Virus record (IMG/VR): IMGVR_UViG_3300045988_086138
From: a virus
Reading direction: 5' to 3' (one strand)
DNA length: 64,000 bases
Position numbers and translations under genes: made by a program. Below are positions 850-33,995 of the stretch, piece by piece (position 1 is the stretch's first letter; every line of letters starts with the position of its first letter). A model generated the notes under the pieces. That model was not told the DNA's origin and did not search any database. It was given only the letters and a program-made list of their open reading frames with translations.

Positions 850-860
850 ACATTATAACG

Positions 861-1325: not shown

Positions 1326-1357
1326 TTCCTTAGTCTATTTTCACTAAGATTCGGTGG

Positions 1358-1400
1358 AGGGGTGGGATTCCTGAGATAGGATGTCTCACCCCTTTCTTGT
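1358..1400 (+). terminator. hairpin terminator after sheath-tube genes
   Basis: AGGGGTG (1358-1364) pairs with CACCCCT (1387-1393), followed by T-rich TTCTTGTTGTT. Confidence 0.5.
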
Positions 1401-1448
1401 TGTTACAGGGAATACTATGAACATTTGTAAACATTAAAATATTAAATT

Positions 1449-2210: not shown

Positions 2211-2356
2211 CTTTAGAGGGTGATTTTGTTTATATTACCAGAGCCGAGATAACCTTAGATTATTTCGGCTTTTTACATCTTCCGTATAGGATAAGGAAAA
2301 TATTCAAGGATATGGCCGAGCAATATTATAAACAATTAAAGAAGAAAACAAGATGA
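1449..2356 (+). CDS. tail assembly chaperone, long product via programmed -1 frameshift
   Basis: Manual translation of the -1 frame from 2192 gives 54 sense codons (LPDGRVTLEG...QLKKKTR) up to TGA 2354-2356. That stop overlaps the tape measure ATG as ATGA. Confidence 0.55.
2186..2192 (+). promoter_or_regulatory. slippery heptamer T TTT TTC (X XXY YYZ) for -1 ribosomal frameshift
   Basis: Zero-frame codons AAT TTT TTC lie at 2184-2192. The -1 frame is open to 2356. Confidence 0.55.
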
Positions 2357-4296: not shown

Positions 4297-4307
4297 ACTA
4301 AAATATT

Positions 4308-5225: not shown

Positions 5226-5508
5226 TACAACTCAGTATTTAGTAGGTGCGAGTCCCTATAACCAAGCCTACGTTTTAAACTATGGCGATGGCGATTATTC
5301 TTTAGAGGCTGTTCAAACCTCAGTACCTTCATCATCCGATGATATACAACATACGGTAAAGGATGGAGAGACTCTACAGAATATTGCTTATAGGTATTAT
5401 GGTGATTCTGGTAAGTGGTATCTTATAGCTGAGGCTAATGGTATACTAAATCCATTTAAGGAATTAGAAAGTGGAACCCTTATAAAAATCCCAGTATATG
5501 CCGGCTAA
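5218..5508 (+). CDS. LysM-domain tail protein (P2 gpX-like)
   Basis: HTVKDGETLQNIAYRYYGDSGKWYLIAEANGILNPFKELESGTLIKIP is a clear LysM motif. Start overlaps the upstream gene. Confidence 0.7.
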   Translation: MIDTTQYLVGASPYNQAYVLNYGDGDYSLEAVQTSVPSSSDDIQHTVKDGETLQNIAYRYYGDSGKWYLIAEANGILNPFKELESGTLIKIPVYAG

Positions 5509-5989
5509 ACAAAAACCCATATTATATAATGGAATGGGCCAACCATATTTGGCTCTTTTCGATTTTAAAGGAATGTCCATTAAGAATCCTCTTACGGGCA
5601 TTCCTCTTGGAGCGTATATAAGTACCTGGAGTTATAGATATGATGAAGAGAAAGAGAATTTAGCAACCATTACTTTTGATACTGGTAATCCTGATACCGT
5701 AGATATAGAGGCTTTACAAGAAGGGCAGAATATATGCCTTCAGTGGGGTTACATATATCCAGACGGTTCATTTGTTTCTGGTCCAATTAAAGTAATCAAA
5801 GTAAGAGATTTCGATGCTAAGTTTGATTCTACTGGTACTCATATAACTATAAAGTGTATTGATTCTACGGGGGATTTAAGGTATCAACCATCTTATAATT
5901 TTTCTGAGATGGAGGGATATAAGTTATCTACCTTCTTAGACAATGGCTGTGATAATTCTGTAGGTGTAATCATAGAAATATTTCAATAA
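5498..5989 (+). CDS. baseplate hub protein, N-terminal fragment (gpD / Mu P-like)
   Basis: 163 aa. ITFDTGNPDTVDIEALQEGQNICLQWGY resembles the N-terminus of hub/late-control-D proteins. Its stop overlaps the next start as TAATG. Confidence 0.45.
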   Translation: MPAKQKPILYNGMGQPYLALFDFKGMSIKNPLTGIPLGAYISTWSYRYDEEKENLATITFDTGNPDTVDIEALQEGQNICLQWGYIYPDGSFVSGPIKVIKVRDFDAKFDSTGTHITIKCIDSTGDLRYQPSYNFSEMEGYKLSTFLDNGCDNSVGVIIEIFQ

Positions 5990-7890: not shown

Positions 7891-7892
7891 TT

Positions 7893-8615
7893 ATGGGATA
7901 CGAAACTGCACAGATTATTACCGAGGAAGGCCTAGAAGGTCTCGGTAGATATTATTCAGTCTATCGAGGTATAGTTGTAGATAACAATGATACCGAGAAG
8001 AATATGAATAGGGTAAAGGTATGTATTCCAGAAGTAATGGGTGGTACTTTTACTTGGGCTATCCCTAAAGGTCAACATGGTTCTATAAGTAGTGGTTTTA
8101 AATATTTAGCCCCGAAGGTTGGAGACATAGTATTTATTACTTTCGAATTTGGTGACCCAACAAAGCCTTTATGGGAATACCATGGTTGGGGATTACAACA
8201 AATACCTCAACCCCTTAATGGTCCGAATAAAATGGGCTTAGTTACACCTGAGGGTAACTTAATTGTGATTGATGATGATGAAGGAACCTTGAACCTATAT
8301 TTTAATGGCTCTGTATCTTTATATTCAGAAAGTGATGTAGTGATAGCCTCTAAGAAAAGTATAGGTATAAATTCTGGGGATTCAGTAGTACTTAATACCG
8401 GAGAGAATAGAGGAATCATTAATATTGAACAGTTAACCGAGAAACTAAATCAAACTGTTAAAGAGTTAGAACAACTTCGCAGTTTGTTTAATTCTCATGT
8501 ACACTCAGGTGTAACTACCGGACCAGGTTCTTCTGGTCCAACAGTAACTCAAGTAACTAAACCTTTCTCACAATTCGTTATAGACGATTATGAGGATAAA
8601 TCTTGCATACACTAA
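7893..8615 (+). CDS. baseplate central spike (gpV / gp5 OB-fold type)
   Basis: The N-terminus YYSVYRGIVVDNNDTEKNMNRVKVCIPEVMGG...GDIVFITFEFGDPTKPLW is typical of phage baseplate assembly protein V. Confidence 0.7.
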   Translation: MGYETAQIITEEGLEGLGRYYSVYRGIVVDNNDTEKNMNRVKVCIPEVMGGTFTWAIPKGQHGSISSGFKYLAPKVGDIVFITFEFGDPTKPLWEYHGWGLQQIPQPLNGPNKMGLVTPEGNLIVIDDDEGTLNLYFNGSVSLYSESDVVIASKKSIGINSGDSVVLNTGENRGIINIEQLTEKLNQTVKELEQLRSLFNSHVHSGVTTGPGSSGPTVTQVTKPFSQFVIDDYEDKSCIH

Positions 8616-9040
8616 TGGAAAAGAATTACTTTACAGATCTAGTTGGTATAGGTGTAACATATCCTATTCAGCTTACTCAGAATGAAAAGGGTGAAAGAGG
8701 TTGGTACCCAGTTAATGGGGATTTTAAACTTATCCGAAATAATATAAGTTCGATATTATATTATATGATAGGTCAGAGGTTTCGACAAGAAAACTTTGGT
8801 AGTAAACTATGGCAATGTATTGAGGAACCAAACTCACAAGCCCTGAGTTTTATAATTAAAGAGTTTTTAAAACAAGCCATAGGTGCTTGGGAACAAAGAA
8901 TAACCTTCCAAAGTATCACAGTTACTAGAGTTGATGCAAAAATACACATAGAAGTAGCTTATGTAGTAAATGGAACAAATTCTAGTCAGTACCTTGATAT
9001 CACCTATGACAGTTCGGATAATTCATTAAATACACAATAA
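8615..9040 (+). CDS. baseplate wedge protein (GPW / gp25-like)
   Basis: GVTYPIQL...IRNNISSILYYMIGQRFRQENFGSKLWQCIEEPN fits the gp25 family. The ATG at 8615 overlaps the upstream stop as TAATG; the ORF-track start at 8603 is a TTG. Confidence 0.7.
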   Translation: MEKNYFTDLVGIGVTYPIQLTQNEKGERGWYPVNGDFKLIRNNISSILYYMIGQRFRQENFGSKLWQCIEEPNSQALSFIIKEFLKQAIGAWEQRITFQSITVTRVDAKIHIEVAYVVNGTNSSQYLDITYDSSDNSLNTQ

Positions 9041-9041
9041 T

Positions 9042-10763
9042 ATGGGAATCACTAATAAATGGCTTAACCCATACCAGAGGTCATATCAACAGATTAAGGC
9101 TAAACTGGTAGAATCCCTTATGGGGCTAAAAGACTCTCAAGGTCAGAAACTCATAACGGATTATTCGGAGGGGAATATCTTAATTATTATCCTCTCATTG
9201 TTTGCGGCAATTGCCGAAGTACTCCATTACTATGTAGATAACATGGCAAGGGAAACTTTCCTATCTACTGCAAGAAGGTATGATTCGGTAGTTAAACATG
9301 GAGCATTGGTAGATTACCATGCTCGAGCAGCAATCGCAGCTACTGTAGATGTAATCTTATCTAGAAGTATTACTGGTAATTCTATCGGAGCCAAATTAAC
9401 TATACCTCAAAGTACTGTATTTACAGACTCTAATGGTAATTCTTGGTTATCTGCCAGAGATGTAATATGGTATTCAAATGTAACTACCTGTAAAGTACCT
9501 CTTATACAGCATGAGAAATATACTTCGAGTGCTCTTAATAATATGGTAATACCCAGTGGGGATAGAGTAATACTTAACCTTGGTACATTACCAAACGGTA
9601 AATACTATGAACAAGGTTCTATGTCTTTACAGATAGGTGGAGAATCCTGGGTATTAGTAGATACTTTTGCAAAATCCAAACCTACAGATAAACATTTCAT
9701 GGTATCAGTAGATGAAGCTCTCAACCCTTATATAATGTTTGGAGATGGTACTTTTGGTAAGAAGCCTGCTGCTGGTGCAAAGATAACTAATGTAGTATTC
9801 TACTTAACCAACGGTTCTCAGGGAAATGTAAAGAGTAATACCATTACTTCTATACCCTCAGTAATATCTTCATCAATTACCGATGCTACAGTAAGTAATG
9901 CTTATGATGCTGCAGGAGGTTCAAACTACGAAAACTTTACAATGCTCAAGGAACATATACCTTTGAGTGTAAAAACCTTGGGAGTAGCAATTACCAAAGA
10001 GGACTTCGAAAGTTTGGCCATGTTAGTAGATGGGGTAAACAAAGCTAAGGCAGATTATGAATGTGGTAGAAAGCTTACCGTATATATTAGCCCAGATGGT
10101 GGAGCAGTTGCATCTTCAGAATTAATAAACAGAGTATACAACCTATTATCTCAAAGAGCTCCCATGACTACCTGGCTTAAGGTTAAGTCTGCAGGCAAGG
10201 TTCAGATAATCCTAGAAATGGATGTTACTGGTAAGAAATCTTATAAAACTGCAGAGATACAAACTCAGATACTTACCGCATTATATAATGCCTATTCTCC
10301 GGAACAAGCCCAGATAGGTGGTGATGTAAGAATATCTGATATCTATGCTTTGATAGATAACCTTTCTACCGTAGACTATCTACATCTTACTAAGTTCTAC
10401 ATTAAACCTTGGCCTATCACCATTTACGGTAATAAAGAATTAAGCTTGGGACAATTTAAGTTAAACAAAGCTACTGGGTCAATGACCTATTATATAACCT
10501 TCAATTCTTCAACTACATTTACTGTACGTTCGGTATCTAATGGTTATGTAACTACAGGGACAGTAGGTAACTCTATCCAGATAATCGATAAAGCAAATGG
10601 TTTTGATTTCTCTTTGGACATTCAGAATAACAGCTATCAATCTGGGTATAGGTATTCTATTACGGTATCAGAACCTAATCACGATTATGAAGACCCAGGG
10701 TTTAACTTACCCGTATTCGAAAATGCTTCACAACTAACACTAACCGTAAAAGAGATAGTATAA
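9042..10763 (+). CDS. baseplate J-like protein (gp6 / gpJ type)
   Basis: 573 aa directly after the gp25-like gene. The N-terminal and central regions look like the baseplate J family. Synteny W-J-I. Confidence 0.7.
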   Translation: MGITNKWLNPYQRSYQQIKAKLVESLMGLKDSQGQKLITDYSEGNILIIILSLFAAIAEVLHYYVDNMARETFLSTARRYDSVVKHGALVDYHARAAIAATVDVILSRSITGNSIGAKLTIPQSTVFTDSNGNSWLSARDVIWYSNVTTCKVPLIQHEKYTSSALNNMVIPSGDRVILNLGTLPNGKYYEQGSMSLQIGGESWVLVDTFAKSKPTDKHFMVSVDEALNPYIMFGDGTFGKKPAAGAKITNVVFYLTNGSQGNVKSNTITSIPSVISSSITDATVSNAYDAAGGSNYENFTMLKEHIPLSVKTLGVAITKEDFESLAMLVDGVNKAKADYECGRKLTVYISPDGGAVASSELINRVYNLLSQRAPMTTWLKVKSAGKVQIILEMDVTGKKSYKTAEIQTQILTALYNAYSPEQAQIGGDVRISDIYALIDNLSTVDYLHLTKFYIKPWPITIYGNKELSLGQFKLNKATGSMTYYITFNSSTTFTVRSVSNGYVTTGTVGNSIQIIDKANGFDFSLDIQNNSYQSGYRYSITVSEPNHDYEDPGFNLPVFENASQLTLTVKEIV

Positions 10764-13225
10764 TGATAAACCTAAAAAATCTAATCGATTTTTTACCATT
10801 CGAATATAAGGACCAAGATACTTATAAGGTAAATGGTAAAGGCATCTTAGAAAGGTTTCTAGAAATTTGCGGAGAGCATTTTGAAGATTATATTACTAAG
10901 GACATTGAGAATATTCTGGATATTATCGATATAGATAAAACCCCAGATATGTACCTTAACTTCCTTTGGCAATTTCTCGGAGAAATGCCCTTTGCTTATG
11001 GGAATACCATAGATGCTCAAAAATGGTCAGAGTACTTTAATGGGTTCTATTCTGATAGTAAACTCCAAGAGCTATCAAAGCTTTGGATAATTCCAAAGGA
11101 AGGCCCATTTACTTTAACAAGTACTCAAGTAAGAAACATACTGAAGTACTCAGTATCACTTTTCAAAATACGAGGGACTTCCGAGTTCTTCGAAATTATG
11201 ATGAGGTTATATGGGTTAACCTGTACAGTAACTGACCCAGCTAAGGCAGACTCTTATGATGGTTGGGTAAAGAGCAACCCGAGGTTTGACCAGTACTATC
11301 AGTACGATGATAAGTATACCTATGATAATACTTTTGATTGTTCTCAATGTATACCCGTAACTTTTAGACTTACCGGTCATGGGTATACTTCTAATTCTGA
11401 AAGCTTTAAAAGATTTAGAGAAGCAGTAGAAAGTTTCTTTAAAAGATTCATACCCTACCATGTATCATTTATTATACAATATGGGTTTACCATAAACGAT
11501 GGGTATACTATTAAGGCAGAGTTAGTAAACCCAGAACAACCTAACCTTATTACTTCAGAAGTATACGAGGTACCAGTAAGGGTAATAGTAACTGCTGATT
11601 GGATAAATGCCGATTTGAGATATCAAATATCAAGTGATGGTGTTAATTGGGGATATACTAAACATGCAAGTGGTTCCGTATTTTATATACCAAGAGCTGG
11701 TACATATTACTTCAGAAGTGTAGGTGATAATTCTAAGGTGACCCAAATCACGGTAAATCAGGAATCCTATAATAGGGTATACTCTATTACTTGTGAACCA
11801 ATCTCTGAAAAGATAACTCCCAGTAAGTTAAAAGTTAGTACTGTAGTAAGGGCTAATGTATCTTATAAAGGTACCGTTAAGATTTGTAATGTAAGGTTAT
11901 CTGGTACTGACCAAGTAAAAGGCTTAGGCTCAACTTGGGAATTTACAGAGCCAGGTACTTATATTTTTGAGATAGTAGAGTTTCCTGTAAAACAAACTTC
12001 TTTTGTAGTAACTCGAGAAGAGATTACTTATAAGGTAAGATGTACACCTTCTGAATTTAGAGTAGGTGATAAACAGAGTATTAGGGATGCAGTTACTACT
12101 CTAACTATAGAATCGAATTATCCAGAATCATTTACTGGTGATTTATACTGTAGGCTAATAGGTGATACCAAGTTGTTTAAGAATGGGGATAAGTTTACTG
12201 CTAGTAGTTACGGTACTTACAAATTCAAATGTACACTGGATAAAAGGGAAACAGATGAAGGGGTAGGTATCTTCGAAGTAACCTCTGGTAAAACTGCAAT
12301 ATATCGAATAAGTATTAACCCACCAACTTCTACTCTATTCAATGGCTCAGCTAAAACTACGGTAAACATCCAACGTATCTCGGGTAATGGTGATGATTAT
12401 AGGGTAAGGGTAGTAGAGACTGGGGAAACATTTAATGCAGCAAGTGGGTATGTATATACTACTAATCGAGCAGGAACATATACTTTCCAATCAGTAGCTT
12501 ATCCTACTGCTAAGACAGCTTGGGTTGTTAATAACTCACCAACTGTATATCAGAATAAACTTAAAATCGTCCCTTCGGATGCTACTGATTCAAAATGGAA
12601 GGAACCAAATTGGTCACTACCAGAAGACCAGATTGATGACACTTATGCCATATACCAATTGTTGGATGAGGCTTCTGCTTGTAAGTTCCATCTTGAAGAA
12701 ATGAAGAATGGGGTTAATGTAAGTGGTACTGCAACTTGTAATGAAACAGGCGAAACGTATAACCTTGAATCAGAGATTATTTTAACTAAGGCTGGTACTT
12801 ATACTTTTACTGCCGATGATGGTTCTTCTTTAAGGTGTCAAGTAATACTCGAAGATTATCCAACTGTTATCGAAATTTCTTGTACTCCGGAGTATGCAGA
12901 ATTAAAAGGTACAGTTAAGCAGGTTTCTACTTTAATTAAGTGTACCTCTAACAAACCGGATTTCGATAGTAGGGTTAGGGAAGTTGGTAAAGTAAATACT
13001 TATGATGCCGGAGGTGCTGGATACGAATTTATAACGGCTACTGCTGGGGAATATATTTTCGAATCTGTAGCAGATACTTCAAAGAGAACTAAATTTACGG
13101 TAGTAGATGCAGACCTTTTAAGTGTCAGTCCTCAGGTATTGGAATGGGAACATGATGACCTATCCGAGAAAACCTTTACTATTACAACATACAGTAATCA
13201 ATCTTGGCAAATAGTAGAACAATGA
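10763..13225 (+). CDS. baseplate/tail fibre protein: gpI-like N-terminus plus about six tandem Ig-like modules
   Basis: The N-terminus LPFEYKDQDTYK...TPDMYLNFLWQFLGEMP resembles tail protein I. The C-terminal part repeats a module ending (A/P)GTYxF about six times. Confidence 0.5.
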   Translation: MINLKNLIDFLPFEYKDQDTYKVNGKGILERFLEICGEHFEDYITKDIENILDIIDIDKTPDMYLNFLWQFLGEMPFAYGNTIDAQKWSEYFNGFYSDSKLQELSKLWIIPKEGPFTLTSTQVRNILKYSVSLFKIRGTSEFFEIMMRLYGLTCTVTDPAKADSYDGWVKSNPRFDQYYQYDDKYTYDNTFDCSQCIPVTFRLTGHGYTSNSESFKRFREAVESFFKRFIPYHVSFIIQYGFTINDGYTIKAELVNPEQPNLITSEVYEVPVRVIVTADWINADLRYQISSDGVNWGYTKHASGSVFYIPRAGTYYFRSVGDNSKVTQITVNQESYNRVYSITCEPISEKITPSKLKVSTVVRANVSYKGTVKICNVRLSGTDQVKGLGSTWEFTEPGTYIFEIVEFPVKQTSFVVTREEITYKVRCTPSEFRVGDKQSIRDAVTTLTIESNYPESFTGDLYCRLIGDTKLFKNGDKFTASSYGTYKFKCTLDKRETDEGVGIFEVTSGKTAIYRISINPPTSTLFNGSAKTTVNIQRISGNGDDYRVRVVETGETFNAASGYVYTTNRAGTYTFQSVAYPTAKTAWVVNNSPTVYQNKLKIVPSDATDSKWKEPNWSLPEDQIDDTYAIYQLLDEASACKFHLEEMKNGVNVSGTATCNETGETYNLESEIILTKAGTYTFTADDGSSLRCQVILEDYPTVIEISCTPEYAELKGTVKQVSTLIKCTSNKPDFDSRVREVGKVNTYDAGGAGYEFITATAGEYIFESVADTSKRTKFTVVDADLLSVSPQVLEWEHDDLSEKTFTITTYSNQSWQIVEQ

Positions 13226-13752
13226 TAAATACCATTGATAGAATCACAGAGACCACGACTCAGTCTTTATTTAAGACATTTACCGTGGGAATATTGGGAG
13301 AGTGTACACAAATCTTATACGATTTAAGGTGGATGATAATACTTGCAATAATCTTAATCCTATCCGATTTATGGTTTGGGTTATCTGCAAGCAGGCTTCA
13401 ACATATAGAGATTCGAAAATCCCGAGCTGGAAGAAGAACTCTAAATAAGATAGTAGATTATATTTGCTATGTTTTACTTGGAGCTGTACTTGGTAAAGCC
13501 ATAGGAGAACCCTATGGAATGAATCCTATAGTTGTATCTATAACCGTTATGGTATTATGTTATTGTTTCGAAGTAGATAGTATATATGGGCATATCTGCG
13601 AAATACATGGTATTAAGAAACGGTATAGTATATGGAGAATTCTCTTTAAGCTATTAACCTTTAGGTTCAAGGATTTAGGTGAAGCATTTAAAGAGATGGC
13701 AGAACAAAAAAATAACTTTAAAAATACTAAGGATAATGAAGACGTACTTTAA
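13222..13752 (+). CDS. membrane protein, holin-family-like
   Basis: The ATG at 13222 overlaps the upstream stop as ATGA. Several hydrophobic segments (WMIILAIILILSDLWFGL, IVDYICYVLLGAVLG, IVVSITVMVLCYCF). Resemblance to holin families is tentative. Confidence 0.4.
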   Translation: MINTIDRITETTTQSLFKTFTVGILGECTQILYDLRWMIILAIILILSDLWFGLSASRLQHIEIRKSRAGRRTLNKIVDYICYVLLGAVLGKAIGEPYGMNPIVVSITVMVLCYCFEVDSIYGHICEIHGIKKRYSIWRILFKLLTFRFKDLGEAFKEMAEQKNNFKNTKDNEDVL

Positions 13753-15091
13753 GTATGAAGGTATTATTAAATCGAAGGAAGCAGCAGAAGCAATTGCTGC
13801 TCCTTCCGGTTTAGGACCATTCTGTGGATTTGGCTCAGCTACCATAAATGGTAATAAATTAATGGTATCTCCTCAGGGAGTTTCTGGAAGTAAATATGCT
13901 AATGTGATTAAGGATAGAATCCTTGCAAGGTACATGGCAAAAGATTCTGAGGATGGGGAATTACCAGATGTGAACTTCGGATGTATTTCAAGAGATGGGT
14001 ATGTATTCATTTCCGATGAGCAAACTCTTACGATTGAAAACATCCAAGGTACTCAAGGCTCAACAGAAGAGGTATTACTATTTGCAGTACATACTCCTAT
14101 ACCGGAGCCAGTAGATAACCCAGTTGATTTTGTAGCATACTGGAATGAATCATCCGAAAGCTTTTACACTTTATTCAAAAAGTCTCAGGATATTTACTAC
14201 CCCATTGCTGAGGATAATCGTACTCCGGATATACTTAATAATGATGTATATTCCGATTATGATATGACGTTTAGCAATCTTCTAGAGATGGCAGAGAGTG
14301 CTTGCCCCTATTACTCCAATAATAAGAATTCAGTTGTTCTTATTGGAGTATATGGTAAGGGTACAGATGCCATGACCAAGAGAAATGAGAACTTTGCTAT
14401 CGTACCTTATCAAGGCAAATTTCAAGAAATCCCATACACTACTGCCGCTCACAGTATGGTGAAGGAATCGGTAAAAAGGGTAGAAGATATTAATAAGGGC
14501 TTCCCAGTAGTAGATGAATCCGGGAACAAGTTTAATATTAAACAGTATATCGATAATCAGATTGAGGCAATTCGAAAAGAATTTGCTGACCAGCTGAGTA
14601 CTGCAAATCTTCCCATTGGTTCTATAATCTTATGGGAAACCGATGTAATACCCGATGGCTGGGCAGAATATACCAAAGCAGCCGGTAGAATAGTTATCGG
14701 TTATCAAGCTGGAGGTATTCAAATTGGTAATGATGTAATGTTACAAAATGTTGGTGATTACTATACACCTACTCAAGGTAACTTCATTATAACTCTTAAG
14801 GGGGATGACTTACCTAAACACAGGCATGCTCTTGGTGTATCTAAAGGTAAACAAGATAATGCCAATAACTGGGAGAATGTTAGACCTCAGTCTTTCTTTA
14901 ATAGGGAGACGGGTTTAAATGGAGACTTCGGTAGAGGAACTCCCACCAAAGGTATTCAAGATGGTGCTATTGTAGTAAGTTGGAACTTGATAGGGGAGTC
15001 TTTCTTACAAGAGACTTCGGTAGATACTTTGAATATCGAAAAATTACCACCGACTATTACTTTAAGATATATCCAAAAGATATCATCATAA
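13736..15091 (+). CDS. tail fibre protein with C-terminal tail-collar-like domain
   Basis: LPIGSIILWETDVIPDGWAEY...GDDLPKHRHALG matches the phage tail collar motif. ATG 13736 was chosen over 13679. Confidence 0.6.
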   Translation: MKTYFKYEGIIKSKEAAEAIAAPSGLGPFCGFGSATINGNKLMVSPQGVSGSKYANVIKDRILARYMAKDSEDGELPDVNFGCISRDGYVFISDEQTLTIENIQGTQGSTEEVLLFAVHTPIPEPVDNPVDFVAYWNESSESFYTLFKKSQDIYYPIAEDNRTPDILNNDVYSDYDMTFSNLLEMAESACPYYSNNKNSVVLIGVYGKGTDAMTKRNENFAIVPYQGKFQEIPYTTAAHSMVKESVKRVEDINKGFPVVDESGNKFNIKQYIDNQIEAIRKEFADQLSTANLPIGSIILWETDVIPDGWAEYTKAAGRIVIGYQAGGIQIGNDVMLQNVGDYYTPTQGNFIITLKGDDLPKHRHALGVSKGKQDNANNWENVRPQSFFNRETGLNGDFGRGTPTKGIQDGAIVVSWNLIGESFLQETSVDTLNIEKLPPTITLRYIQKISS

Positions 15092-15169
15092 TCGTAGTAA
15101 ACACTCATGTATTAGTTGTATTGTTAGTATGTAAACAAATCTAAGTTTTGCATAATTACTTTAAGGGAA

Positions 15170-19956: not shown

Positions 19957-20544
19957 ATGAAAGGTTTACAATTTTTAGGGAACAGAGTAGAGGATGCAGC
20001 TAATGCTTTTATTGATGTCCTCAAGTATTCAGACCAATCAGTAGAGTATCCCGATTTTAAGGATATCGAACCTTGGCCTGATGAGATAGTTAATATGTTC
20101 TATGTAATTTGGAAGAATGCTAAATTCTCAGAACTAAGTGCAATCATTATGTATACTCAGCAGTCATCCCAATTTAAAGAGATTTCGGAATTGATGCTGG
20201 GTATTGGGTTAGTAGAAATGAGGCATCTTGATAAGATATCCGATTTCATACAGTTAGCAGACCCCTATGAAAATTACTCTGTAATCAACATTAACCCTAC
20301 AATTGAAATAGGTCCTACTTGGGAACAGGCTTTGAAGATTGCCTGGGATTCTGAGATAGAAACCATAGGTCACTATAAGAAGATTCAAAAGGCAATCGGT
20401 CAATACAAAGAACGACCCGATTATGATGATGTGAATTATTTCCTTGAGAAACTTATGGCAGATGAGGAACATCATATCAAACTTCTCAAGGAAGCTTTGG
20501 GAGTAGATAAGGGTACTAAAGGTGTAACTGTAATCATCAAGTGA
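19957..20544 (+). CDS. ferritin-like di-iron/manganese protein (CotJC / Mn-catalase-like)
   Basis: Paired ExxH motifs in helical context: LVEMRHLDKI and MADEEHHIKLLKEAL, plus DSEIETIGHY. Confidence 0.5.
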   Translation: MKGLQFLGNRVEDAANAFIDVLKYSDQSVEYPDFKDIEPWPDEIVNMFYVIWKNAKFSELSAIIMYTQQSSQFKEISELMLGIGLVEMRHLDKISDFIQLADPYENYSVININPTIEIGPTWEQALKIAWDSEIETIGHYKKIQKAIGQYKERPDYDDVNYFLEKLMADEEHHIKLLKEALGVDKGTKGVTVIIK

Positions 20545-23007: not shown

Positions 23008-23194
23008 TATGATATGGGCAATGTTTAAGTTATATCTTAACAACCCAAATTATTATGTACGGCAAGATGATGTTCTTGCTGATTTGTTTATGCAGGGTGA
23101 ATATGACGTAGAAAGATTCTGTCATTCACTCGGAGTAACTCCTCAACGAGGATTAACCTTTGGACAACTTTTAAAACAGTGTAATATATTATGA
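22994..23194 (+). CDS. hypothetical protein
   Basis: In-frame ATGs at 22940, 22994 and 23009. The true start is uncertain. Confidence 0.4.
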   Translation: MQKIDMIWAMFKLYLNNPNYYVRQDDVLADLFMQGEYDVERFCHSLGVTPQRGLTFGQLLKQCNIL

Positions 23195-23730
23195 ACAGAT
23201 TCAGATTTATCAAAGTAAGGGAGGTAGTATCTCCAAACAGAGCAAACCCAAATGATGCTGGGTTAGATTTTTATGTACCAACCGATTTATATCCAGAGCA
23301 TATTCATTCTAAAAATGAATTAGACTCAGAAGGTTATGATTTAGATGTTCCTTTTGGTGAAGCCTTTGTAAGGCATATAGCTTTAAAACCTGGACATCGT
23401 ATACTTATCCCATCTGGTATTAGGGGATTGCTTGAACCACCTGCCTCTATGTTAATGGCTGCTAATAAGTCCGGTATAGTTACTAAGCAAGGTTTACTCT
23501 TTACAGCTGAGATAGTAGATTCCCCTTATGTAGGAGAGATACATATCGGAGTATATAATGCTTCTGATAAGTCTCAAGTTATCGAATGTGGCAAGAAGCT
23601 TATACAGTTCATACATGTTCCTATCTACATCACAGAGCCAGAAGAGATTCAACAAGAAGAATTCTATACTGAGTCTCAAATGTGGGGAAGTAGAGGAGAT
23701 AAGGGATTTGGTTCATCTCAAAATAAATAA
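23191..23730 (+). CDS. dut: dUTP pyrophosphatase (trimeric dUTPase)
   Basis: Motifs AGLDFYVP, IPSGI, VDSPYVGEIHIGVYN and C-terminal SRGDKGFGSS. Confidence 0.8.
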   Translation: MNRFRFIKVREVVSPNRANPNDAGLDFYVPTDLYPEHIHSKNELDSEGYDLDVPFGEAFVRHIALKPGHRILIPSGIRGLLEPPASMLMAANKSGIVTKQGLLFTAEIVDSPYVGEIHIGVYNASDKSQVIECGKKLIQFIHVPIYITEPEEIQQEEFYTESQMWGSRGDKGFGSSQNK

Positions 23731-23735
23731 ACATC

Positions 23736-24575
23736 ATGGATGTAAGAAACATAAGAGAAGAGGTGCCCAATATAAAAGAAACAGAGGTACTTCCACAGAT
23801 GTATATCTTAGGGTTAGAACAATTAAATGGGTATAGACAAATAGAATCACTACCAGAGTATCCCTTAGATATAAATAACCCTAAGAGCCAAGTTATACTT
23901 AAGGATTTTATTGGTAGGGTAATCGAAGAATTAACTGAAGGCTTTGAATCTACAGATTTCGTGGTAGCTATATACCAAAAACATGGGTGGAATAATGATT
24001 GCTTAACTGAGGAAGAATATACCGAAGTACTTAATCATCTAGCAAATGCAAATGAAGAACAAGCAGATGCTTTAGGATTCTTCTTTACTTTGCTTATATA
24101 TTCCAATATATTGCCAGAGGATATACTTGCATACAATAATGCAAAAAACCTATTTGAGGTAATGGCTATCGGGGTAAAGGAATTAATAACTAAGTACCCG
24201 GATTATCATATAAAGAAATATCCCATATTAAATCCAGAGGACTATGTAGGTGATGTGGACCAACCAGACTGGGACAAGCTAGTTTCATATACACCAGGCT
24301 TTCATAATATGAGTGACTTATCTCATGAAACTGAGAAGTTATATCTATGGGAAGTTATATACGAACTGAATAAGGCAAGGAATTTCCTTAAATGCCGTCC
24401 TTGGAAACAAACTTCGGTAATGACTAAAGAGATAGAATTTCAGGAGTCATTAGTAAAATCATTATATATATATATGGGATTCCTTGCATTAAACGGGTTC
24501 ACTACTCAGGGTTTATTTGGATTATTCTTTAAAAAACAACGCCTCAACTTATGGAGGCAACAAACTAATTATTAA
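23736..24575 (+). CDS. MazG-type all-alpha NTP pyrophosphohydrolase-like protein
   Basis: GRVIEELTEGFES ... NEEQADALGFFFTLLIY matches the EExxE ... ExxD helix pair of the MazG/dCTPase superfamily. Confidence 0.5.
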   Translation: MDVRNIREEVPNIKETEVLPQMYILGLEQLNGYRQIESLPEYPLDINNPKSQVILKDFIGRVIEELTEGFESTDFVVAIYQKHGWNNDCLTEEEYTEVLNHLANANEEQADALGFFFTLLIYSNILPEDILAYNNAKNLFEVMAIGVKELITKYPDYHIKKYPILNPEDYVGDVDQPDWDKLVSYTPGFHNMSDLSHETEKLYLWEVIYELNKARNFLKCRPWKQTSVMTKEIEFQESLVKSLYIYMGFLALNGFTTQGLFGLFFKKQRLNLWRQQTNY

Positions 24576-24576
24576 C

Positions 24577-25488
24577 GTGTCAGGATGGAATAAAAAATTA
24601 GAGGGACTTCAACTAAATACGGAGGAGTCCCTCCATTCGTTAGAATTTGCTACTTCACAAGAAGCTTGGGAAAAACTCAATGAGGGATTCTTAAGATTAG
24701 ACCCAATCCTATTTGGGAAAGGAGCTATGGCTAATAGTGGGGTAGCAGTAGTGTATAATGTATTTATAAAAATACGTAAAGCATGGGTAGACCCAGAATT
24801 TGATTATGGAAGATGTTTCAATTACAAAGAAACTAAGTGGACTAGCTTATTGAATAACTACATAGATTTTAATAAGCTTGACTTATTGCGTAGTAAACTG
24901 AGAGTACTGAGAAATAAGTACAATCAGAATTACAATATAACCTATATGTTTAACAATCATCATGATAATGGGAAACAATGTCTAATAGCAGCGACTTTTT
25001 CAAAACGATTCGGGGAGGACATCCCAGTTATTACAATGGTAGTTCGGGCTTCGGAGATTACCAAGAGGTTAATATTCGATTTCCTATTAATTCAACGAAT
25101 GTCAGAGTACGTATATGGTCCGGACCAGTCAGTACAAATCAATCTATTTGCGACTCAAATGTACGGAAATGTGGAGACTCTTCTAATGTATCATACCCAT
25201 AAACCTTTGAAGAAGGTACTAAAGGGAGCAGAAGAGAATTCATGGAATAAGAGGGTGAAGGAAATATGGAAGAAATTTCAAAATGGTACGGAGAAAGATT
25301 TCTCTTCATTCAAGGTATTCTTTAGAAGTTTTAAAGTACTCAGACCAGATTTATATGAGGAAACATATAAATCAATGAAAGCAAAAGAATTACTTCTTGA
25401 ATATGAGGATATTGAATATCCCGAGAATGTAATCTCTTACTCTCAACGTAAAGCATATAAGAAGAAACTTTTAAAACAGAAGAAATGA
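24577..25488 (+). CDS. divergent thymidylate synthase-fold protein (paralog 1)
   Basis: GKQCLIAATF and VVRASEITKRLIFDFLLIQRM align by eye to the ThyA PCH and RSxD...N regions. GTG 24577 follows the upstream stop. The TTG at 24517 is an alternative start. Confidence 0.45.
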   Translation: MSGWNKKLEGLQLNTEESLHSLEFATSQEAWEKLNEGFLRLDPILFGKGAMANSGVAVVYNVFIKIRKAWVDPEFDYGRCFNYKETKWTSLLNNYIDFNKLDLLRSKLRVLRNKYNQNYNITYMFNNHHDNGKQCLIAATFSKRFGEDIPVITMVVRASEITKRLIFDFLLIQRMSEYVYGPDQSVQINLFATQMYGNVETLLMYHTHKPLKKVLKGAEENSWNKRVKEIWKKFQNGTEKDFSSFKVFFRSFKVLRPDLYEETYKSMKAKELLLEYEDIEYPENVISYSQRKAYKKKLLKQKK

Positions 25489-26222
25489 GGATATATTCTA
25501 ACAGCTTTGAGTTAATGTCAGAACTTGGCAGAGAACTCAACAGTTATGGTCAAACTGTAAAACCAAAGACCTATCAGAATCAAGTAATTGAAGGTAATGA
25601 GGATTTTATAACAAAGGAACTCATTTGCCAACAATATTGCTTAACTTCACTTGGAGACCCAATATGGTTATTTGTATTCTCTCATTCAAAAGAATGGGCA
25701 GATGCAGAATTTAAAGAGAGAGTATCTAATGATTGGATTAATCCCGGAGATGCTTGGGAATTAAGGAAAGATTTATGGGAACAGTTTTTAGTAGATGGTC
25801 AATTTGATTATACCTATAATGAAAGAATGGCCTGGGTATTACCAAATTTGGTAGACCTTTTAAAAGAAGACCAAGATACTCGTAAAGCTATTCTTCCTAT
25901 ATTTAATGGTAGAGGTGAAATAGATACTGATTATTATGATGGAAGTCAACGTATCCCATGTTCTATGTATTATGATTTTTTAATCAGGGCGAACGGTAAA
26001 GGAGAGAAGGTATTACATATTTGTTATCACCAAAGAAGTTCAGATTTTGTTACTCACTTTGGTAATGATGTATACCTTGCATGGAGACTTATGGAATATG
26101 TAGCTAAAGAGGTTGGTGTTAAACCAGGCTATTTATATCATACTATAGATTCTCTTCATGCTTATAAGAAGGATTGGTTAGCATTATCATCCAATCTGGA
26201 AGATTTACAAGAGAAATATTAA
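25485..26222 (+). CDS. thymidylate synthase / pyrimidine hydroxymethylase family enzyme (paralog 2)
   Basis: Family hallmarks: RIPCSMYYDF (catalytic Cys), CYHQRSSDFVTHFGNDVYLAW and IDSLHAYKKD. Confidence 0.75.
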   Translation: MRIYSNSFELMSELGRELNSYGQTVKPKTYQNQVIEGNEDFITKELICQQYCLTSLGDPIWLFVFSHSKEWADAEFKERVSNDWINPGDAWELRKDLWEQFLVDGQFDYTYNERMAWVLPNLVDLLKEDQDTRKAILPIFNGRGEIDTDYYDGSQRIPCSMYYDFLIRANGKGEKVLHICYHQRSSDFVTHFGNDVYLAWRLMEYVAKEVGVKPGYLYHTIDSLHAYKKDWLALSSNLEDLQEKY

Positions 26223-26276: not shown

Positions 26277-28568
26277 ATGGAGACACGGTATACAATAATA
26301 AAAAACAAGAAAGAGCTTAAAAAACTTATTGCTTGTTGTAAAGCTACAGGTTATGCTTGCTGTGACTACGAAACAAATGCAGAACCTATATACAACAAAA
26401 GTTTTAAGCCAACTATACTCTCAGTATCCTGGATGCCAGGATTTGGTGCTTCCATACCTCTAGACCATTTTGAAACAAAGGATTATACTTCACCTGGATG
26501 GAATTGGAAAAAGATGTTAAGGAAATTTGGGGAAGAGGTTATTGAAAATCCAGAGATAACTAAGGTTGCATGGAACTGGAAATTTGATGATCAGATTAAT
26601 CAGAAGTACTTCATATTTTATAGAGGTACATGCTTAGATGGGATGCTTGCAAAATATGTTCTCAATGAGGAAAAACCTCATGGGCTAAAGGATATGGTTA
26701 GAAGGTATCTACCAGAATATGGTGATTACGAAAAGCAAGATAAGTTCGATAAGATACCATGGGGTAAAAAGGAATTAGACCCATTATGCAAATACGGTTG
26801 TCAAGATACTGACTTTACATTACGATTAATGATATTCTTTGAGAAGAAGTTAATTGATTTAAAGATGTATTCTGTATTCCGTAACCTATTCATGTGTAAT
26901 TCACGGGTATTAACCTCTGTAGAGAAAGAAGGTTTATACCTAGATACTGAGTTCAATAAAAAGCTTTTGGAAGAATATAAACCAAAAATAGATGCTGCTA
27001 GACAAGCAATATACGACTTGCCAAAAGTAAAGAAGTTCGAAAAGAAGTACAACCAAGAAAAGATTGATAAGTACATTGAATCTATTAAAGCTGAACTTGA
27101 GGAGTTGGATTATGATGACCCAAAAGACCATCGTAAGATTGTATCAAGGGAACAGAAAATATCTAATATCAAGGCAGGTATATTCACTACTAAAAAAGAA
27201 CAAGAACTTATAAGACCCATTAATCTTGGTAGTCCAGTTGATTTACCTAAATTAATGTATTCAGAAGATGGGTTTAATTTCGATGTAATCAAGGATAATG
27301 AATCTGGTAAGCCAAGTACAGATGAAGAAACTCTTACTAATTTAAGGCTGACGGTTAAAAAACCTGATTCACCAAAAGCAATATTTCTTGATAAGCTTCT
27401 TGAATTGAGAGGGTTAGAAAAAATGTATAAGACCTATATTTATGGTTGGTGGGAAAAAGTCCAGGATGATTCTCGATTACATGGTAGGTATAATATACAT
27501 GGTACTGATTCTAACCGGTTTAGTTCTGCAGACCCAAATATGCAGCAGATACCTAAGACATCTGTAGACCCTAATATCAAGAAACAATTGATTGCTCCTC
27601 CTGGTTACTTATATATGGCATTCGACTACTCTCAGGCAGAGCTGAGAATGATGGCTCACTTATCAGGTGATGAAACCTATCTGGAAGCATTTGCTAAGGG
27701 AGTAGACCCTCATCTTGGTATAGCAGCAGCAAAATATGGAGTACCAATTGAAGAAGCAAGTAAAATATATGAAGACGAAAGTCATCCCGATTATAAACTA
27801 TGGAAGGTAAGGAGAAAGCAAGCTAAACAAATTGCATTTGGACTTATCTATGGTATTGGGGATGCTTTACTAGCAGTAAAATTATCAGACCCCAAAGCTG
27901 GTATTATAGTTACCAAGGAAGAAGCTCGTAAGGAAATGGATGAGTTCTTTAAGAAACATCCTAAGATACTTAAGTTTAAAGAGAAGCAAGAGAAATTCTT
28001 ACGTAAGCATGGGTATTATACCCAGTTATTTGGTACTAAACGAAGACTCCCACAAATATATTCAAATGATAAGCAAGAAGTTGCTTATGCTATTCGTTTA
28101 GGACTTAATTTCCCATGTCAAGGTGCTGCAGCAAATATGACTAACTTTGGAGCTATCCTTGTTTATTGGTTAATGAGACAAGGTAAATTACCAATGATGA
28201 AAGAAGCTTGTACTGTCCATGATGCAGTATATATGTATTCTAAACCAAAAGATATAAATACCTGGACAGTATATACTATTTGGAATATTCTACGTAATCC
28301 AAGTACTAAGAAGTATTTCGGATTTCAAGTTGATGATGTAGATATGGATATGGACTTTACTATTGGTAGGTCAATGGCAGAAGAATTACCATTTATCCCA
28401 GGGTATGATTATAATAAAATGCTCCAACCAGATTTCTCAGTAGAGGAGTATATGGAAGAGCATAAGAAGTATAAGCATATCCACATCAAACAATTTAAGG
28501 AAAGGTTTAACAAACAGATTAAGAAATATGAAAAAGATTTTGAACGGACCCACAGTATGGCGAGCTAA
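26277..28568 (+). CDS. family A DNA polymerase with 3'-5' exonuclease domain
   Basis: Exo I CCDYETNA. Motif A DYSQAELRMMAH. Motif B RRKQAKQIAFGLIYG. Motif C CTVHDAV. Confidence 0.9.
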   Translation: METRYTIIKNKKELKKLIACCKATGYACCDYETNAEPIYNKSFKPTILSVSWMPGFGASIPLDHFETKDYTSPGWNWKKMLRKFGEEVIENPEITKVAWNWKFDDQINQKYFIFYRGTCLDGMLAKYVLNEEKPHGLKDMVRRYLPEYGDYEKQDKFDKIPWGKKELDPLCKYGCQDTDFTLRLMIFFEKKLIDLKMYSVFRNLFMCNSRVLTSVEKEGLYLDTEFNKKLLEEYKPKIDAARQAIYDLPKVKKFEKKYNQEKIDKYIESIKAELEELDYDDPKDHRKIVSREQKISNIKAGIFTTKKEQELIRPINLGSPVDLPKLMYSEDGFNFDVIKDNESGKPSTDEETLTNLRLTVKKPDSPKAIFLDKLLELRGLEKMYKTYIYGWWEKVQDDSRLHGRYNIHGTDSNRFSSADPNMQQIPKTSVDPNIKKQLIAPPGYLYMAFDYSQAELRMMAHLSGDETYLEAFAKGVDPHLGIAAAKYGVPIEEASKIYEDESHPDYKLWKVRRKQAKQIAFGLIYGIGDALLAVKLSDPKAGIIVTKEEARKEMDEFFKKHPKILKFKEKQEKFLRKHGYYTQLFGTKRRLPQIYSNDKQEVAYAIRLGLNFPCQGAAANMTNFGAILVYWLMRQGKLPMMKEACTVHDAVYMYSKPKDINTWTVYTIWNILRNPSTKKYFGFQVDDVDMDMDFTIGRSMAEELPFIPGYDYNKMLQPDFSVEEYMEEHKKYKHIHIKQFKERFNKQIKKYEKDFERTHSMAS

Positions 28569-32550: not shown

Positions 32551-33415
32551 GAAAACAATATTATTGATTGATGGGGAGAATATTCTCCATCAGTCTTTTC
32601 ATAAGTTCGAAAAACTTAAATCTACGGATGGCAAACCAAGTGGAGCAATATTCGGATTTTTTAAATCACTACACATGTACCTTACAAGGTTTGAACCAGA
32701 TGAGGTTTATATCTCATTTGATAATGGGCATTCTCCGGTAAGGATGAAGTTATTGCCTAACTATAAGGGGCATAGAAAAAATATCTCAGTAGATTATGAA
32801 TCATTGCAAAAACAAAAGGCAGTGATAATGAAAATACTGGGTATGCTAAGAATTAATTATATATTCGATAAAAAGAAATCCACAGTATATGAGGGTGATG
32901 ATTTCTTAGCATACCTTGCAATTAAAAAATTCCAATCTGAAAAAATGATATTAATATCTTCAGACAAGGACTTTAATCAATTGTTATCAAACAATCTAAG
33001 GATATATAATCCGAGAAAGGATGAGATGATAAGGATGGATAACTGTAAAGAGTTATTCGGATATCATTCTCATGAGACGGTAGAATATCTTGCAATGGTT
33101 GGGGATACTTCCGATGATATCCCAGGGTTCCCAGGAATAGGTCCAGTAAAAGCAAGGAAAATTCTTGATGAGGGTAGGATTGAAAAATTCATTGCTCACA
33201 GTAAGAACAAAGAATATCTTCAGATTTGGAAAAGGAATGAGCAATTGATTGACCTTTTCTGGTTTGTAAGACATAACCCTTTGAAGGAATTGCCCTTAAA
33301 AACAAAAAGGGAGTTTAAATATGAGAAATTCAAGAAAGTATGTATCGAATACTCTTTAGCATCTTTCTTGACAAATGAATTTATAAAACCATTTAAAGCA
33401 TTACACCATGACTAA
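32543..33415 (+). CDS. 5'-3' exonuclease / flap endonuclease (RNase H-like)
   Basis: LLIDGENILHQSFH, ISFDNGHS, YKGHRK, ISSDKDFNQLL, MVGDTSDDIPGFPGIGPVKA. ATG 32543 overlaps the upstream stop. Confidence 0.85.
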   Translation: MSKKTILLIDGENILHQSFHKFEKLKSTDGKPSGAIFGFFKSLHMYLTRFEPDEVYISFDNGHSPVRMKLLPNYKGHRKNISVDYESLQKQKAVIMKILGMLRINYIFDKKKSTVYEGDDFLAYLAIKKFQSEKMILISSDKDFNQLLSNNLRIYNPRKDEMIRMDNCKELFGYHSHETVEYLAMVGDTSDDIPGFPGIGPVKARKILDEGRIEKFIAHSKNKEYLQIWKRNEQLIDLFWFVRHNPLKELPLKTKREFKYEKFKKVCIEYSLASFLTNEFIKPFKALHHD

Positions 33416-33995
33416 AAGAATAATGTTTGTAGGTCCCTCTGGGATAGGTAAAACCACTTTAGCACAATACGTGGCTAAATCACAAAACATACCTTTTGTA
33501 TCAGGTAGTATGTCGGATTTATTACCGGCTATGAAAGATTTATCTCATAATGAGGTATTATCACTCGGTTCTCAGGCAATGCAAACGGCAGATTATCAAC
33601 TCCTTAGTTTAAGAAACAGACTCTTTAGAGGTAAAGAGGAATTTGTTACAGATAGGAGTTATGCTGACCTGGCTGCATATTTTTGGTATAAACAATCTAG
33701 AACTATTCCGGAATGCGAATTAGAACACTTTATAGGTTGTTGTAAAGCATCAATGGAAGACCAATGTGATTTAGCAATCTTCCTTCCTCTAAACCTTTGT
33801 AATTATTCTGATTGGGCAATGGAAGATAATAAGAAGAGAATTACGAATAGATTCTTTCAGATTCAGATATCATCGTTGATGGGAGAACTTCTTGCAGATT
33901 GGGAAATATCCACATTATGTTTATCAAGTCTGGATTTGGAAGAAAGAAAAGAACAAATAGACTATCATATAAACCGGATATGGGGAAAGAAGTAG
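33408..33995 (+). CDS. P-loop nucleoside/nucleotide kinase-like protein
   Basis: FVGPSGIGKTTLAQY Walker A, and VTDRSYADLAAYF resembling the dNK-family ERS motif. Confidence 0.45.
   Translation: MTKRIMFVGPSGIGKTTLAQYVAKSQNIPFVSGSMSDLLPAMKDLSHNEVLSLGSQAMQTADYQLLSLRNRLFRGKEEFVTDRSYADLAAYFWYKQSRTIPECELEHFIGCCKASMEDQCDLAIFLPLNLCNYSDWAMEDNKKRITNRFFQIQISSLMGELLADWEISTLCLSSLDLEERKEQIDYHINRIWGKK

Follow-up and report, generated by a model that had tools for sequence, protein, structure and literature searches.

A conserved pair of thymidylate synthase-fold proteins in a human-gut myovirus and its possible place in a cytosine-modification pathway

Enzymes of the thymidylate synthase (TS) superfamily are the entry point of the phage pyrimidine hypermodification pathways considered here, and each new branch of the superfamily has given new chemistry or tools, namely 5-hydroxymethylcytosine, 5-methylcytosine, 5-hydroxymethyluracil, and, in 2025-2026, flavin-dependent 5-hydroxycytosine. 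The DNA analysed here is a 64,000-nucleotide stretch of IMG/VR virus record IMGVR_UViG_3300045988_086138, referred to as the window. It features four + strand open reading frames at positions 23191-26222, with spacings of 5, 1, and -4 bases, and the last two of them encode TS-fold proteins in tandem, called p3 and TS-X. This arrangement raises the question of which nucleotide the two proteins act on and what they make of it. The original prediction, made from the sequence alone, described the four co-directional genes as a candidate non-canonical pyrimidine pathway, and all four are found on the + strand at these coordinates with the motifs quoted for them in their translations. The most interesting result of the present analysis is the pair formed by p3 and TS-X, which is conserved and uncharacterised.

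TS-X and its divergent partner p3

TS-X (25485-26222, + strand, 245 aa) is a TS-family enzyme of a distinct clade, clade X. It matches PF00303 with 43.4 bits versus a cut-off of 24.3 (E 3e-11), over the C-terminal half of the profile only, and phrog_160 with E 2e-26. The best matches among Protein Data Bank (PDB) sequences are the flavin-dependent deoxycytidine monophosphate (dCMP) hydroxylase of HY126 (E 6e-10) and the CMP hydroxymethylase MilA. The NCBIfam equivalog models for ThyA are not reached, the best models giving 16.7-47.4 bits against cut-offs of 108-427 (for example, 29.8 versus 327). The sequences of E. coli ThyA and T4 gp42 were verified to be identical to PDB chains and were then aligned with TS-X, its relatives, and the ThyA of PaMx74. 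The E. coli ThyA residues Glu58, Tyr94, Arg126, Leu143, Cys146, His147, Arg166 to Asp169, Asn177, and His207 correspond in TS-X to Glu45, Tyr111, Arg133, Arg156, Cys159, Ser160, Arg184-Ser185-Ser186-Asp187, Asp195, and His225, respectively. Alignment A2, in which E. coli ThyA and T4 gp42 are included, shows no variation at Cys159, Arg184, and Ser185.

The base-specificity position of TS-X had been described as ambiguous, however, the alignment with ThyA and T4 gp42 places Asp195 clearly at this position, 11 residues after the equivalent of Arg166 (R+11) in the segment QRSSDFVTHFGNDVY. The same spacing is found for Asn177 of E. coli ThyA and for Asp179 of T4 gp42 (RSNDVVFGFRND), and the latter segment aligns with RSSDFVTHFGND of TS-X. 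Asp at position 177 (E. coli ThyA numbering) is an experimentally established determinant of dCMP specificity, and position 177 is the top discriminator of modified versus unmodified metavirome contigs (PMC13326640, PMC8670742). Since TS-X features Asp at this position, its substrate should be dCMP rather than dUMP. The C-terminus of TS-X, where ThyA has the segment that closes over folate, is short, with 20 residues beyond His225 compared to 57 beyond His207 in E. coli ThyA. The Asp at position 177, the low equivalog scores, and the short C-terminus indicate that TS-X is not an ordinary ThyA.

The gene for p3 (24577-25488, + strand, 303 aa) has a GTG start one base beyond the stop of the preceding pyrophosphatase gene, and the ATG of TS-X overlaps the TGA stop of p3 (ATGA). 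The sole family match of p3 is phrog_34294, a PHROG that carries no function. Searches of Pfam, NCBIfam, and the PDB sequences gave no match to p3, the profile search against the PDB sequences returning chance matches to centrin only, and five further p3-like proteins also have no Pfam match. The best 120 rows of the homologue search consist of near-identical gut-phage proteins only, and the diversity of the family came from 137 relatives, the only ones found when 1.84 billion cluster representatives were searched exhaustively. No paper characterising p3 was found in the literature.

The fold of p3 was modelled with AlphaFold from an alignment of 66 relatives, giving a predicted local distance difference test score (pLDDT) of 92.7 and a predicted template modelling score (pTM) of 0.89. 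Essentially all of the top 50 Foldseek matches of this model in the PDB are TS-family proteins, plus one protein designed on the E. coli TS sequence, and the first ~12 matches have a probability of 1.0 with template modelling (TM) scores of 0.35-0.55. They include MilA (E 4.5e-5), the HY126 dCMP hydroxylase (E 1.9e-4, TMt 0.55), T4 dCMP hydroxymethylase (E 1.3e-3), and many ThyA entries. The Foldseek matches in BFVD are likewise TS, dCMP hydroxymethylase, dCMP hydroxylase, and MilA. At the sequence level the relationship to TS is seen by profile-profile comparison only. Local hhalign of p3 against a broad TS alignment, which includes the verified E. coli ThyA and T4 gp42, gave a probability of 81.6% (E 1.1e-5) over 74 columns in the register of the catalytic core, whereas global hhalign against an alignment of five TS sequences gave a probability of only 2.6%. 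The model, the Foldseek matches, and the local profile alignment bear out the earlier assignment of p3 as a highly divergent TS-fold protein.

In the catalytic-core register Cys135, Arg157, Glu160, and Asp168 of p3 align to Cys159, Arg184, Asp187, and Asp195 of TS-X, which are equivalent to Cys146, Arg166, Asp169, and Asn177 of E. coli ThyA. In a superfamily alignment of 72 sequences, which reaches down to ~20% identity, Tyr83, Lys87, Leu91, Tyr95, Cys135, Arg157, and Asp168 are conserved at 100% and Glu160 at 99%. Because the TS catalytic positions are conserved across these sequences, p3 has the look of an active enzyme with a cytosine 5'-nucleotide as its ligand. Both paralogs thus retain the nucleophilic Cys, the Arg that binds phosphate, and Asp at the position that sets base specificity, and neither is an ordinary ThyA. 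This stands against the suggestion that the tandem consists of one true thymidylate synthase and one hydroxymethylase; the other option that had been offered, two successive modification activities, is possible.

There appear to be structural differences between p3 and the TS enzymes. A conserved pair of the Arg126/Arg127 type, which TS subunits donate across the dimer, is not found upstream of the third strand of p3, the model features only ~50 residues, forming three helices, between the second core strand, which ends at residue 68, and the third, which starts at residue 119, and the secondary-structure string shows an extra helical C-terminal region. From the model, p3 appears to have lost much of the small domain that binds folate. 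The C-terminal tail of the window p3 is basic and ends (25440-25485) in ...SQRKAYKKKLLKQKK. In the long members of the family (P0296, P0293, P0310, and P0300) the C-terminal tails are rich in Lys and Arg and contain GRP, AT-hook-like motifs, examples of which are KRGPGRPPKD, RAGRPPKDD, and GKRGRPRKIR. No Pfam domain was found in the long members beyond these basic low-complexity tails, and the idea of a domain fusion is unsupported. The tails may serve in association with nucleic acid or the replisome. One further member (P0004, 438 aa) features an N-terminal extension of 130 aa fused to p3.

The p3-TS-X cassette in other phages

Megablast found no match to the region among 50,697 phage records, and the relatives were found through their proteins. 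In a tblastn search with p3, matches were limited to relatives among gut phages and to ten phages of C. perfringens. Pseudomonas phage PMBT14 was identified from the third-best BFVD match of the p3 model. This phage encodes a hypothetical protein of 262 aa with the signature C / R-x-x-E / D(+11), whose gene is flanked on one side by that of an NTP pyrophosphohydrolase and on the other by that of a "thymidylate synthase", and the latter gene is followed by a dCMP deaminase and then by the DNA polymerase PolA. A tblastn search with the PMBT14 protein returned 18 records from Pseudomonas, Stutzerimonas, Serratia, Yersinia, Brevundimonas, Desulfofustis, and uncultured phages, at least 8 of which also rank next among the matches found with the TS-X of the window. 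Wherever the coordinates of both genes are listed, TS-X is immediately preceded by the p3-like gene, and all of the p3-like proteins match phrog_34294.

The full cassette has the order Tmk-like kinase, all-alpha NTP pyrophosphatase, p3, TS-X, in some phages a deaminase, and PolA. This order is kept in Pseudomonas phage PMBT14, Yersinia phage P744, Brevundimonas phage Strzyga, Serratia phage Serbin, and MW202455, in which PolA follows the pair either directly or past a deaminase or other small genes. The deaminase genes are found after TS-X in PMBT14, Serbin, and P744. A shorter set, pyrophosphatase, p3, and TS-X or at least p3 and TS-X, is kept in the C. perfringens phages and on three distant contigs from metagenomes; on the three contigs, which include the two most distant full-length relatives of p3, TS-X follows p3 and the pyrophosphatase lies upstream on two. 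The overlap of the p3 stop with the TS-X start is also found in PMBT14, Strzyga, MW202455, and Serbin. These gene orders and overlaps indicate that p3 and TS-X form a conserved, translationally coupled pair across unrelated phages. The pyrophosphatase slot holds either a gp56-like enzyme or an enzyme of the MazG/PRA-PH type, and this non-orthologous replacement suggests that the pyrophosphatase function is tied to the pair.

The pair also occurs beside other genes for deoxythymidine monophosphate (dTMP) synthesis. MW202455 encodes ThyX, and on a metagenome contig (L017) p3 and TS-X are directly preceded by a canonical ThyA that shares 37% identity with the E. coli enzyme. The presence of a separate ThyX or ThyA suggests that p3 and TS-X are not the dTMP synthase of these phages. 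Three TS-fold genes in a row are thus found on L017 (canonical ThyA, p3, TS-X) as well as in a related gut phage, Phage DP SC_6_H4_2017 (L002), where two tandem copies of p3 (4030-4854 and 5012-5752) precede TS-X. Some relatives carry extra HNH-type genes beside the polymerase (for example, L004 13085-13579). These inserts and the extension of P0004 are probably homing-endonuclease insertions or read-through calls.

The neighbourhood of a TS homologue with Asp at position 177 (D177), a PRA-PH protein, a deaminase, and PolA has been described for metavirome contigs enriched in modified cytosines, and the cassette matches it. Of seven TS homologues with D177 and a linked deaminase, five produced 5-methyl-dCMP in vivo (10.1101/2024.12.05.627091). 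A second TS-fold gene is not mentioned in that study.

Proteins identical to those of the window are present on ~86-kb contigs from human-gut metagenomes, and the p3 protein clusters contain thousands of member sequences from such metagenomes; this phage lineage is very abundant in the human gut. The genome is that of a myovirus of ~86 kb. The four genes are located in its replication module, preceded by genes for a DnaB helicase and a SNF2-type helicase and followed by a family A DNA polymerase (26277-28568, + strand, 763 aa; PF01612 and PF00476 on the identical gene in L003). Genes for gp32-like, RecA/UvsX-like, FEN, and SbcCD proteins lie further downstream of the polymerase. A 195-aa protein with weak rubrerythrin/ferritin-like Pfam matches is encoded at 19957-20544, just upstream of the SNF2-type helicase. 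Positions 1-15100 (L006, L008) hold a tail and baseplate module with a gp19-like tube, a tape measure, baseplate V, and gp25, and several large proteins of this module have faint BACON-domain matches, which hint at a Bacteroidota host. Between 36000 and 58000 there are ~40 small + strand open reading frames (65-300 aa), almost none of which is Pfam-positive, and from ~50 kb to 58 kb the GC skew is negative while the genes remain on the + strand. ARAGORN found no tRNA genes in the window.

A proposed pathway and its alternatives

The enzymes that accompany the pair bear on its function. The first of the four genes (23191-23730, + strand, 179 aa) encodes a trimeric dUTPase, as had been proposed, with matches to PF00692 (49.4 bits versus a cut-off of 22, E 4.8e-13), phrog_135 (E 1.1e-19), and TIGR00576 (E 3.4e-17, under the equivalog cut-off). 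Its translation features motif III (AEIVDSPYVGE) and motif V (SRGDKGFGSS).

The second gene (23736-24575, + strand, 279 aa) was originally called MazG-type. The assignment to the all-alpha NTP pyrophosphatases holds, however, the comparisons point to the dimeric-dUTPase / T4 gp56 dCTPase branch of this superfamily. It matches phrog_12184, "nucleotide pyrophosphohydrolase", with E 7.5e-18, scores 19.7 bits against PF08761 (dimeric dUTPase), just short of the cut-off of 22.9, and is homologous to the pyrophosphatase in the same cassette slot of the C. perfringens, Serratia, and Yersinia phages. A profile of these cassette pyrophosphatases matches T4-type gp56 dCTPase with 18.9 bits (E 5e-8 in a one-sequence search), and the cassette enzymes and gp56 have in common the motif KPWK and the C-terminal motif Y..K...N..RQ...Y. 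The gp56 query was checked in the phage collection, in which it is 99.4% identical to annotated dCTP pyrophosphatases. The pyrophosphatase matched no PDB sequence, and tblastn against the phages did not reach T4 gp56 directly, so the profile was needed for the link. Since a bona fide trimeric dUTPase coexists with this enzyme and its gene lies upstream of the putatively dCMP-specific enzymes, a preference for dCTP can be inferred, and the protein is a candidate dCTPase that supplies dCMP.

The P-loop protein at 33408-33995 (+ strand, 195 aa), which had been noted as kinase-like, proved to have a thymidylate-kinase fold in its model. It matches PF13521 (AAA_28) with 32.1 bits, which is over the cut-off, and phrog_2107, "thymidylate kinase", with E 2.6e-8. 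The AlphaFold model has a pLDDT of 90.5, and its top Foldseek matches are thymidylate kinases (E ~3e-7, TM scores of 0.55-0.71). The motifs GPSGIGKT and DRS-Y..AAY are invariant, and the latter resembles the DRY..AYQ motif of Tmk. The protein is a candidate deoxynucleoside monophosphate (dNMP) kinase for modified dCMP. It was also considered as an orthologue of the kinases in the PMBT14-type cassettes, and this was rejected because the match is limited to the Walker A motif.

The favoured interpretation, which is given a probability of roughly one half, is a pre-replicative pathway of the T4 type that leads to C5-modified dCMP and in which p3 and TS-X act jointly. The gp56-like pyrophosphatase would convert dCTP to dCMP, thereby depleting the canonical nucleotide and supplying the pathway, while the trimeric dUTPase would deal separately with dUTP. 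Both p3 and TS-X would then act on the cytosine mononucleotide at C5/C6. TS-X would most likely transfer one carbon from methylene-tetrahydrofolate to form 5-hydroxymethyl- or 5-methyl-dCMP, and p3 would either form a heterodimer with TS-X or carry out an adjacent step on the same nucleotide. The thymidylate-kinase-fold protein together with the host NDP kinase would produce the modified triphosphate, and the adjacent family A polymerase is the presumed consumer, which would incorporate the modified nucleotide into DNA. The likeness to known base-replacement pathways, which had been noticed from the gene set, thus holds for the T4 logic of pyrophosphatase, TS homologue, and dNMP kinase; the analogy to the 5-hydroxymethyl-dU phages does not hold, since the Asp at position 177 points to cytosine.

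The product of TS-X was considered from two positions of the active site. Position 143 is hydrophobic in methyl-forming enzymes and Asp or Glu in hydroxymethyl-forming enzymes, where the acid is thought to admit or activate water, and D169N is the signature of the flavin-dependent 5-hydroxy-dCMP synthases (PMC13326640). Position 169 is Asp187 in TS-X and Glu160 in p3, so that neither protein has the flavin signature, and the retained Asp187 suggests that TS-X is not of the flavin type. The predicted product is 5-methyl-dCMP, 5-hydroxymethyl-dCMP, or another derivative of dCMP. More tentatively, p3 and TS-X, as a heterodimer or in consecutive steps, might make a cytosine derivative that has not yet been described, which is considered rather unlikely. 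A possible route would begin with attack of the p3 Cys on C6 of 5-hydroxymethyl-dCMP, after which loss of water would restore the exocyclic methylene intermediate and a different nucleophile would be captured. Alternatively, p3 might carry out folate-independent chemistry, such as deamination by covalent catalysis.

Several observations weigh against a modified-cytosine pathway of this kind. Position 143 of TS-X is Arg156 (R-x-P-C), which is invariant in 8 of 8 aligned clade members and is neither hydrophobic, as in methyl-forming enzymes, nor Asp/Glu, as in hydroxymethyl-forming enzymes, so the product cannot be read from the sequence. Physical contact between p3 and TS-X is suggested solely by their adjacency and translational coupling. 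No nucleoside analysis was found in the literature for the window phage or for any isolate that carries the pair. The phage also encodes a C5-cytosine DNA methyltransferase, the N-terminal two thirds of which lie at 63315-64000 (+ strand) and continue past the end of the window. The full gene of 347 aa, in the near-identical genome L008 (14055-15098), matches PF00145 over the cut-off (E 1.4e-13), and the window translation features FxGxG-like, PDC, and ENL motifs. If C were substituted at C5 throughout the DNA, nothing would be left for this methyltransferase to act on. Restriction sites are also avoided in the window, with GATC observed 19 times versus 217 expected in a maximal-order Markov model (O/E, the observed-to-expected ratio, 0.09), ATGCAT 0 times versus 13.1, and CATATG once versus 21.7. 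The avoidance suggests strong selection by host restriction systems of the GATC, NsiI, and NdeI types and thus continuing exposure to restriction, so that protection would be at most partial or the modification small. T4 DNA is blocked for NsiI (ATGCAT) and not for NdeI (CATATG) (PMC7653180). Given the NsiI block on T4 DNA, the avoidance of ATGCAT and GATC suggests that the DNA of the window phage is not fully shielded. Finally, no glycosyltransferase or other tailoring gene was found in the Pfam annotation of ~74 of the 86 kb. The methyltransferase, the site avoidance, and the lack of a tailoring gene in this annotation argue for a small substituent, partial replacement, or a role in the nucleotide pool over bulky hypermodification of the T4 type.

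Two further features were observed in this context. The methyltransferase has an unusual SPDCG at the expected motif IV (PCQ), and CpG is depleted in the window, with an odds ratio of 0.50.

The strongest alternative, which is nonetheless considered unlikely, is that the cassette converts surplus dC nucleotides of the pool into their dT counterparts for a genome of 35% G+C and that the virion DNA is canonical. The pyrophosphatase would convert dCTP to dCMP, TS-X would form 5-methyl-dCMP, and deamination to dTMP would be carried out by p3 through covalent Cys-C6 catalysis or, in the PMBT14-type cassettes, by the zinc deaminase. Canonical C would fit both the C5 methyltransferase and the restriction-site avoidance. 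The phages that replace C with 5-methylcytosine make dTTP by deaminating 5-methyl-dC nucleotides, and 5-methyl-dCMP was the product of five of the seven deaminase-linked D177 homologues (10.1101/2024.12.05.627091). As described above, a deaminase gene comes after TS-X in PMBT14, Serbin, and P744; no zinc deaminase was found in the annotated regions of the window phage. However, p3 is present alongside the zinc deaminase in several cassettes and is thus not a simple substitute for it, and dTMP is already covered by ThyX in MW202455 and by the canonical ThyA beside the pair on L017. TS-X also differs from the 5-methyl-dCMP synthase of PaMx74 in having neither its ThyA-like C-terminus nor its DHFR neighbour. 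To our knowledge, no deaminase with a TS fold is known.

It is also conceivable, and quite unlikely, that p3 is a degenerate, non-catalytic subunit that stabilises or regulates TS-X or uses the basic tail to tether it, perhaps to DNA or the replisome, and that TS-X, an ordinary dCMP methylase or hydroxymethylase, is the only catalyst of the two. TS enzymes function as obligate dimers, and p3, which is translationally coupled to TS-X, has lost the Pfam-detectable TS signature and appears to have lost the Arg pair of the R126/R127 type. The Lys/Arg-rich tails with GRP, AT-hook-like motifs in the long members would also suit a tether. In addition, D177 homologues expressed with T4 gp1 alone gave 5-methyl-dC (10.1101/2024.12.05.627091); these homologues may or may not belong to clade X. 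On the other hand, the residues that are strictly conserved in the 72 p3 sequences are the TS catalytic constellation plus a Tyr/Lys pair, a pattern expected of an active site and not of a scaffold. Least of all is it to be expected, at very low probability, that TS-X is a plain thymidylate synthase in an operon that boosts dTTP and the upstream gene is unrelated, as the automated annotation of its relatives as "thymidylate synthase" would have it, since TS-X lies far under the ThyA equivalog cut-offs, features Asp at position 177, and is missing the C-terminal segment, while the upstream gene is TS-fold and other loci carry a ThyX or ThyA in addition to the pair.

If p3 does act with TS-X to make an undescribed cytosine derivative, or carries out folate-independent chemistry, this would be a route of DNA modification or nucleotide conversion that is widespread and has been overlooked, given that the pair is found in phages whose hosts are Bacteroidota-type gut bacteria, Clostridium, Pseudomonas, Serratia, Yersinia, and Brevundimonas. 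Any modification would alter sensitivity to restriction and CRISPR and possibly the recovery of such phages by sequencing. No restriction phenotype or biochemical study was found in the literature for any phage that carries the pair. The prediction is practical to test because the pair is carried by cultured isolates, among them C. perfringens phages CPD4, P21, and CPAS-15, Pseudomonas phage PMBT14, and Serratia phage Serbin.

Comparison with known systems

The closest overall parallel to the proposed pathway is drawn with T4. The window pyrophosphatase features the KPWK and C-terminal RQ...Y motifs of the gp56 type, and TS-X has in common with gp42 the Cys, the RSxD motif, the Asp at position 177, the SLH motif, and the short C-terminus. 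Both phages encode a P-loop protein that is dNMP kinase-like, and the genes lie in the replication module of a myovirus. Unlike T4, the window features a second, very divergent TS-fold enzyme that is obligatorily paired with the TS homologue, a separate trimeric dUTPase, and a C5 DNA methyltransferase, and no glucosyltransferases were found in the ~74 annotated kb. Position 143 is Arg in TS-X and Asp in T4 gp42, and the window kinase is thymidylate-kinase-like and not gp1-like.

The 5-methylcytosine phages Xp12 and PaMx74, which use a dCMP methyltransferase, MazG, and a 5-methyl-dCTP deaminase, resemble the window in the combination of a D177 TS homologue with an NTP pyrophosphatase, and the PMBT14-type cassettes add a deaminase next to PolA. 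In contrast, the ThyA of PaMx74 has a long, ThyA-like C-terminus and an adjacent DHFR gene (frd), and the gene upstream of it is not p3-like. With its short C-terminus, SLH motif, and lack of a DHFR neighbour, the TS-X sequence appears to resemble T4 gp42 more than the PaMx74 enzyme, and it does not look like that of a reductive methylase. The "hydrolase" gp53 of PaMx74 was considered as an equivalent of p3 and was rejected because it does not align to the p3 family, and tblastn with p3-type queries returned no record of Xp12 or PaMx74.

MilA, the CMP 5-hydroxymethylase of mildiomycin biosynthesis (5jnh/5b6d), is the top PDB match of the p3 model in Foldseek and a sequence match of TS-X. This TS-fold enzyme is specific for cytosine and features Asp at position 177. 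It differs from the window proteins in that it belongs to a bacterial antibiotic pathway, acts on a ribonucleotide, features Asp at position 143, and is encoded in single copy outside of a replication cassette. The flavin-dependent 5-hydroxy-dCMP synthases (RB69 gp48, DLP3 gp80, and HY126 AfhB; 9iqu/9iqc) include both the best PDB sequence match of TS-X and the best match of the p3 model by TM-score (TMt 0.55). Their D169N substitution is absent here, and no cluster of arabinosyl- or glycosyltransferases was found in the ~74 annotated kb. These synthases show that the TS fold can switch both cofactor and chemistry on dCMP.

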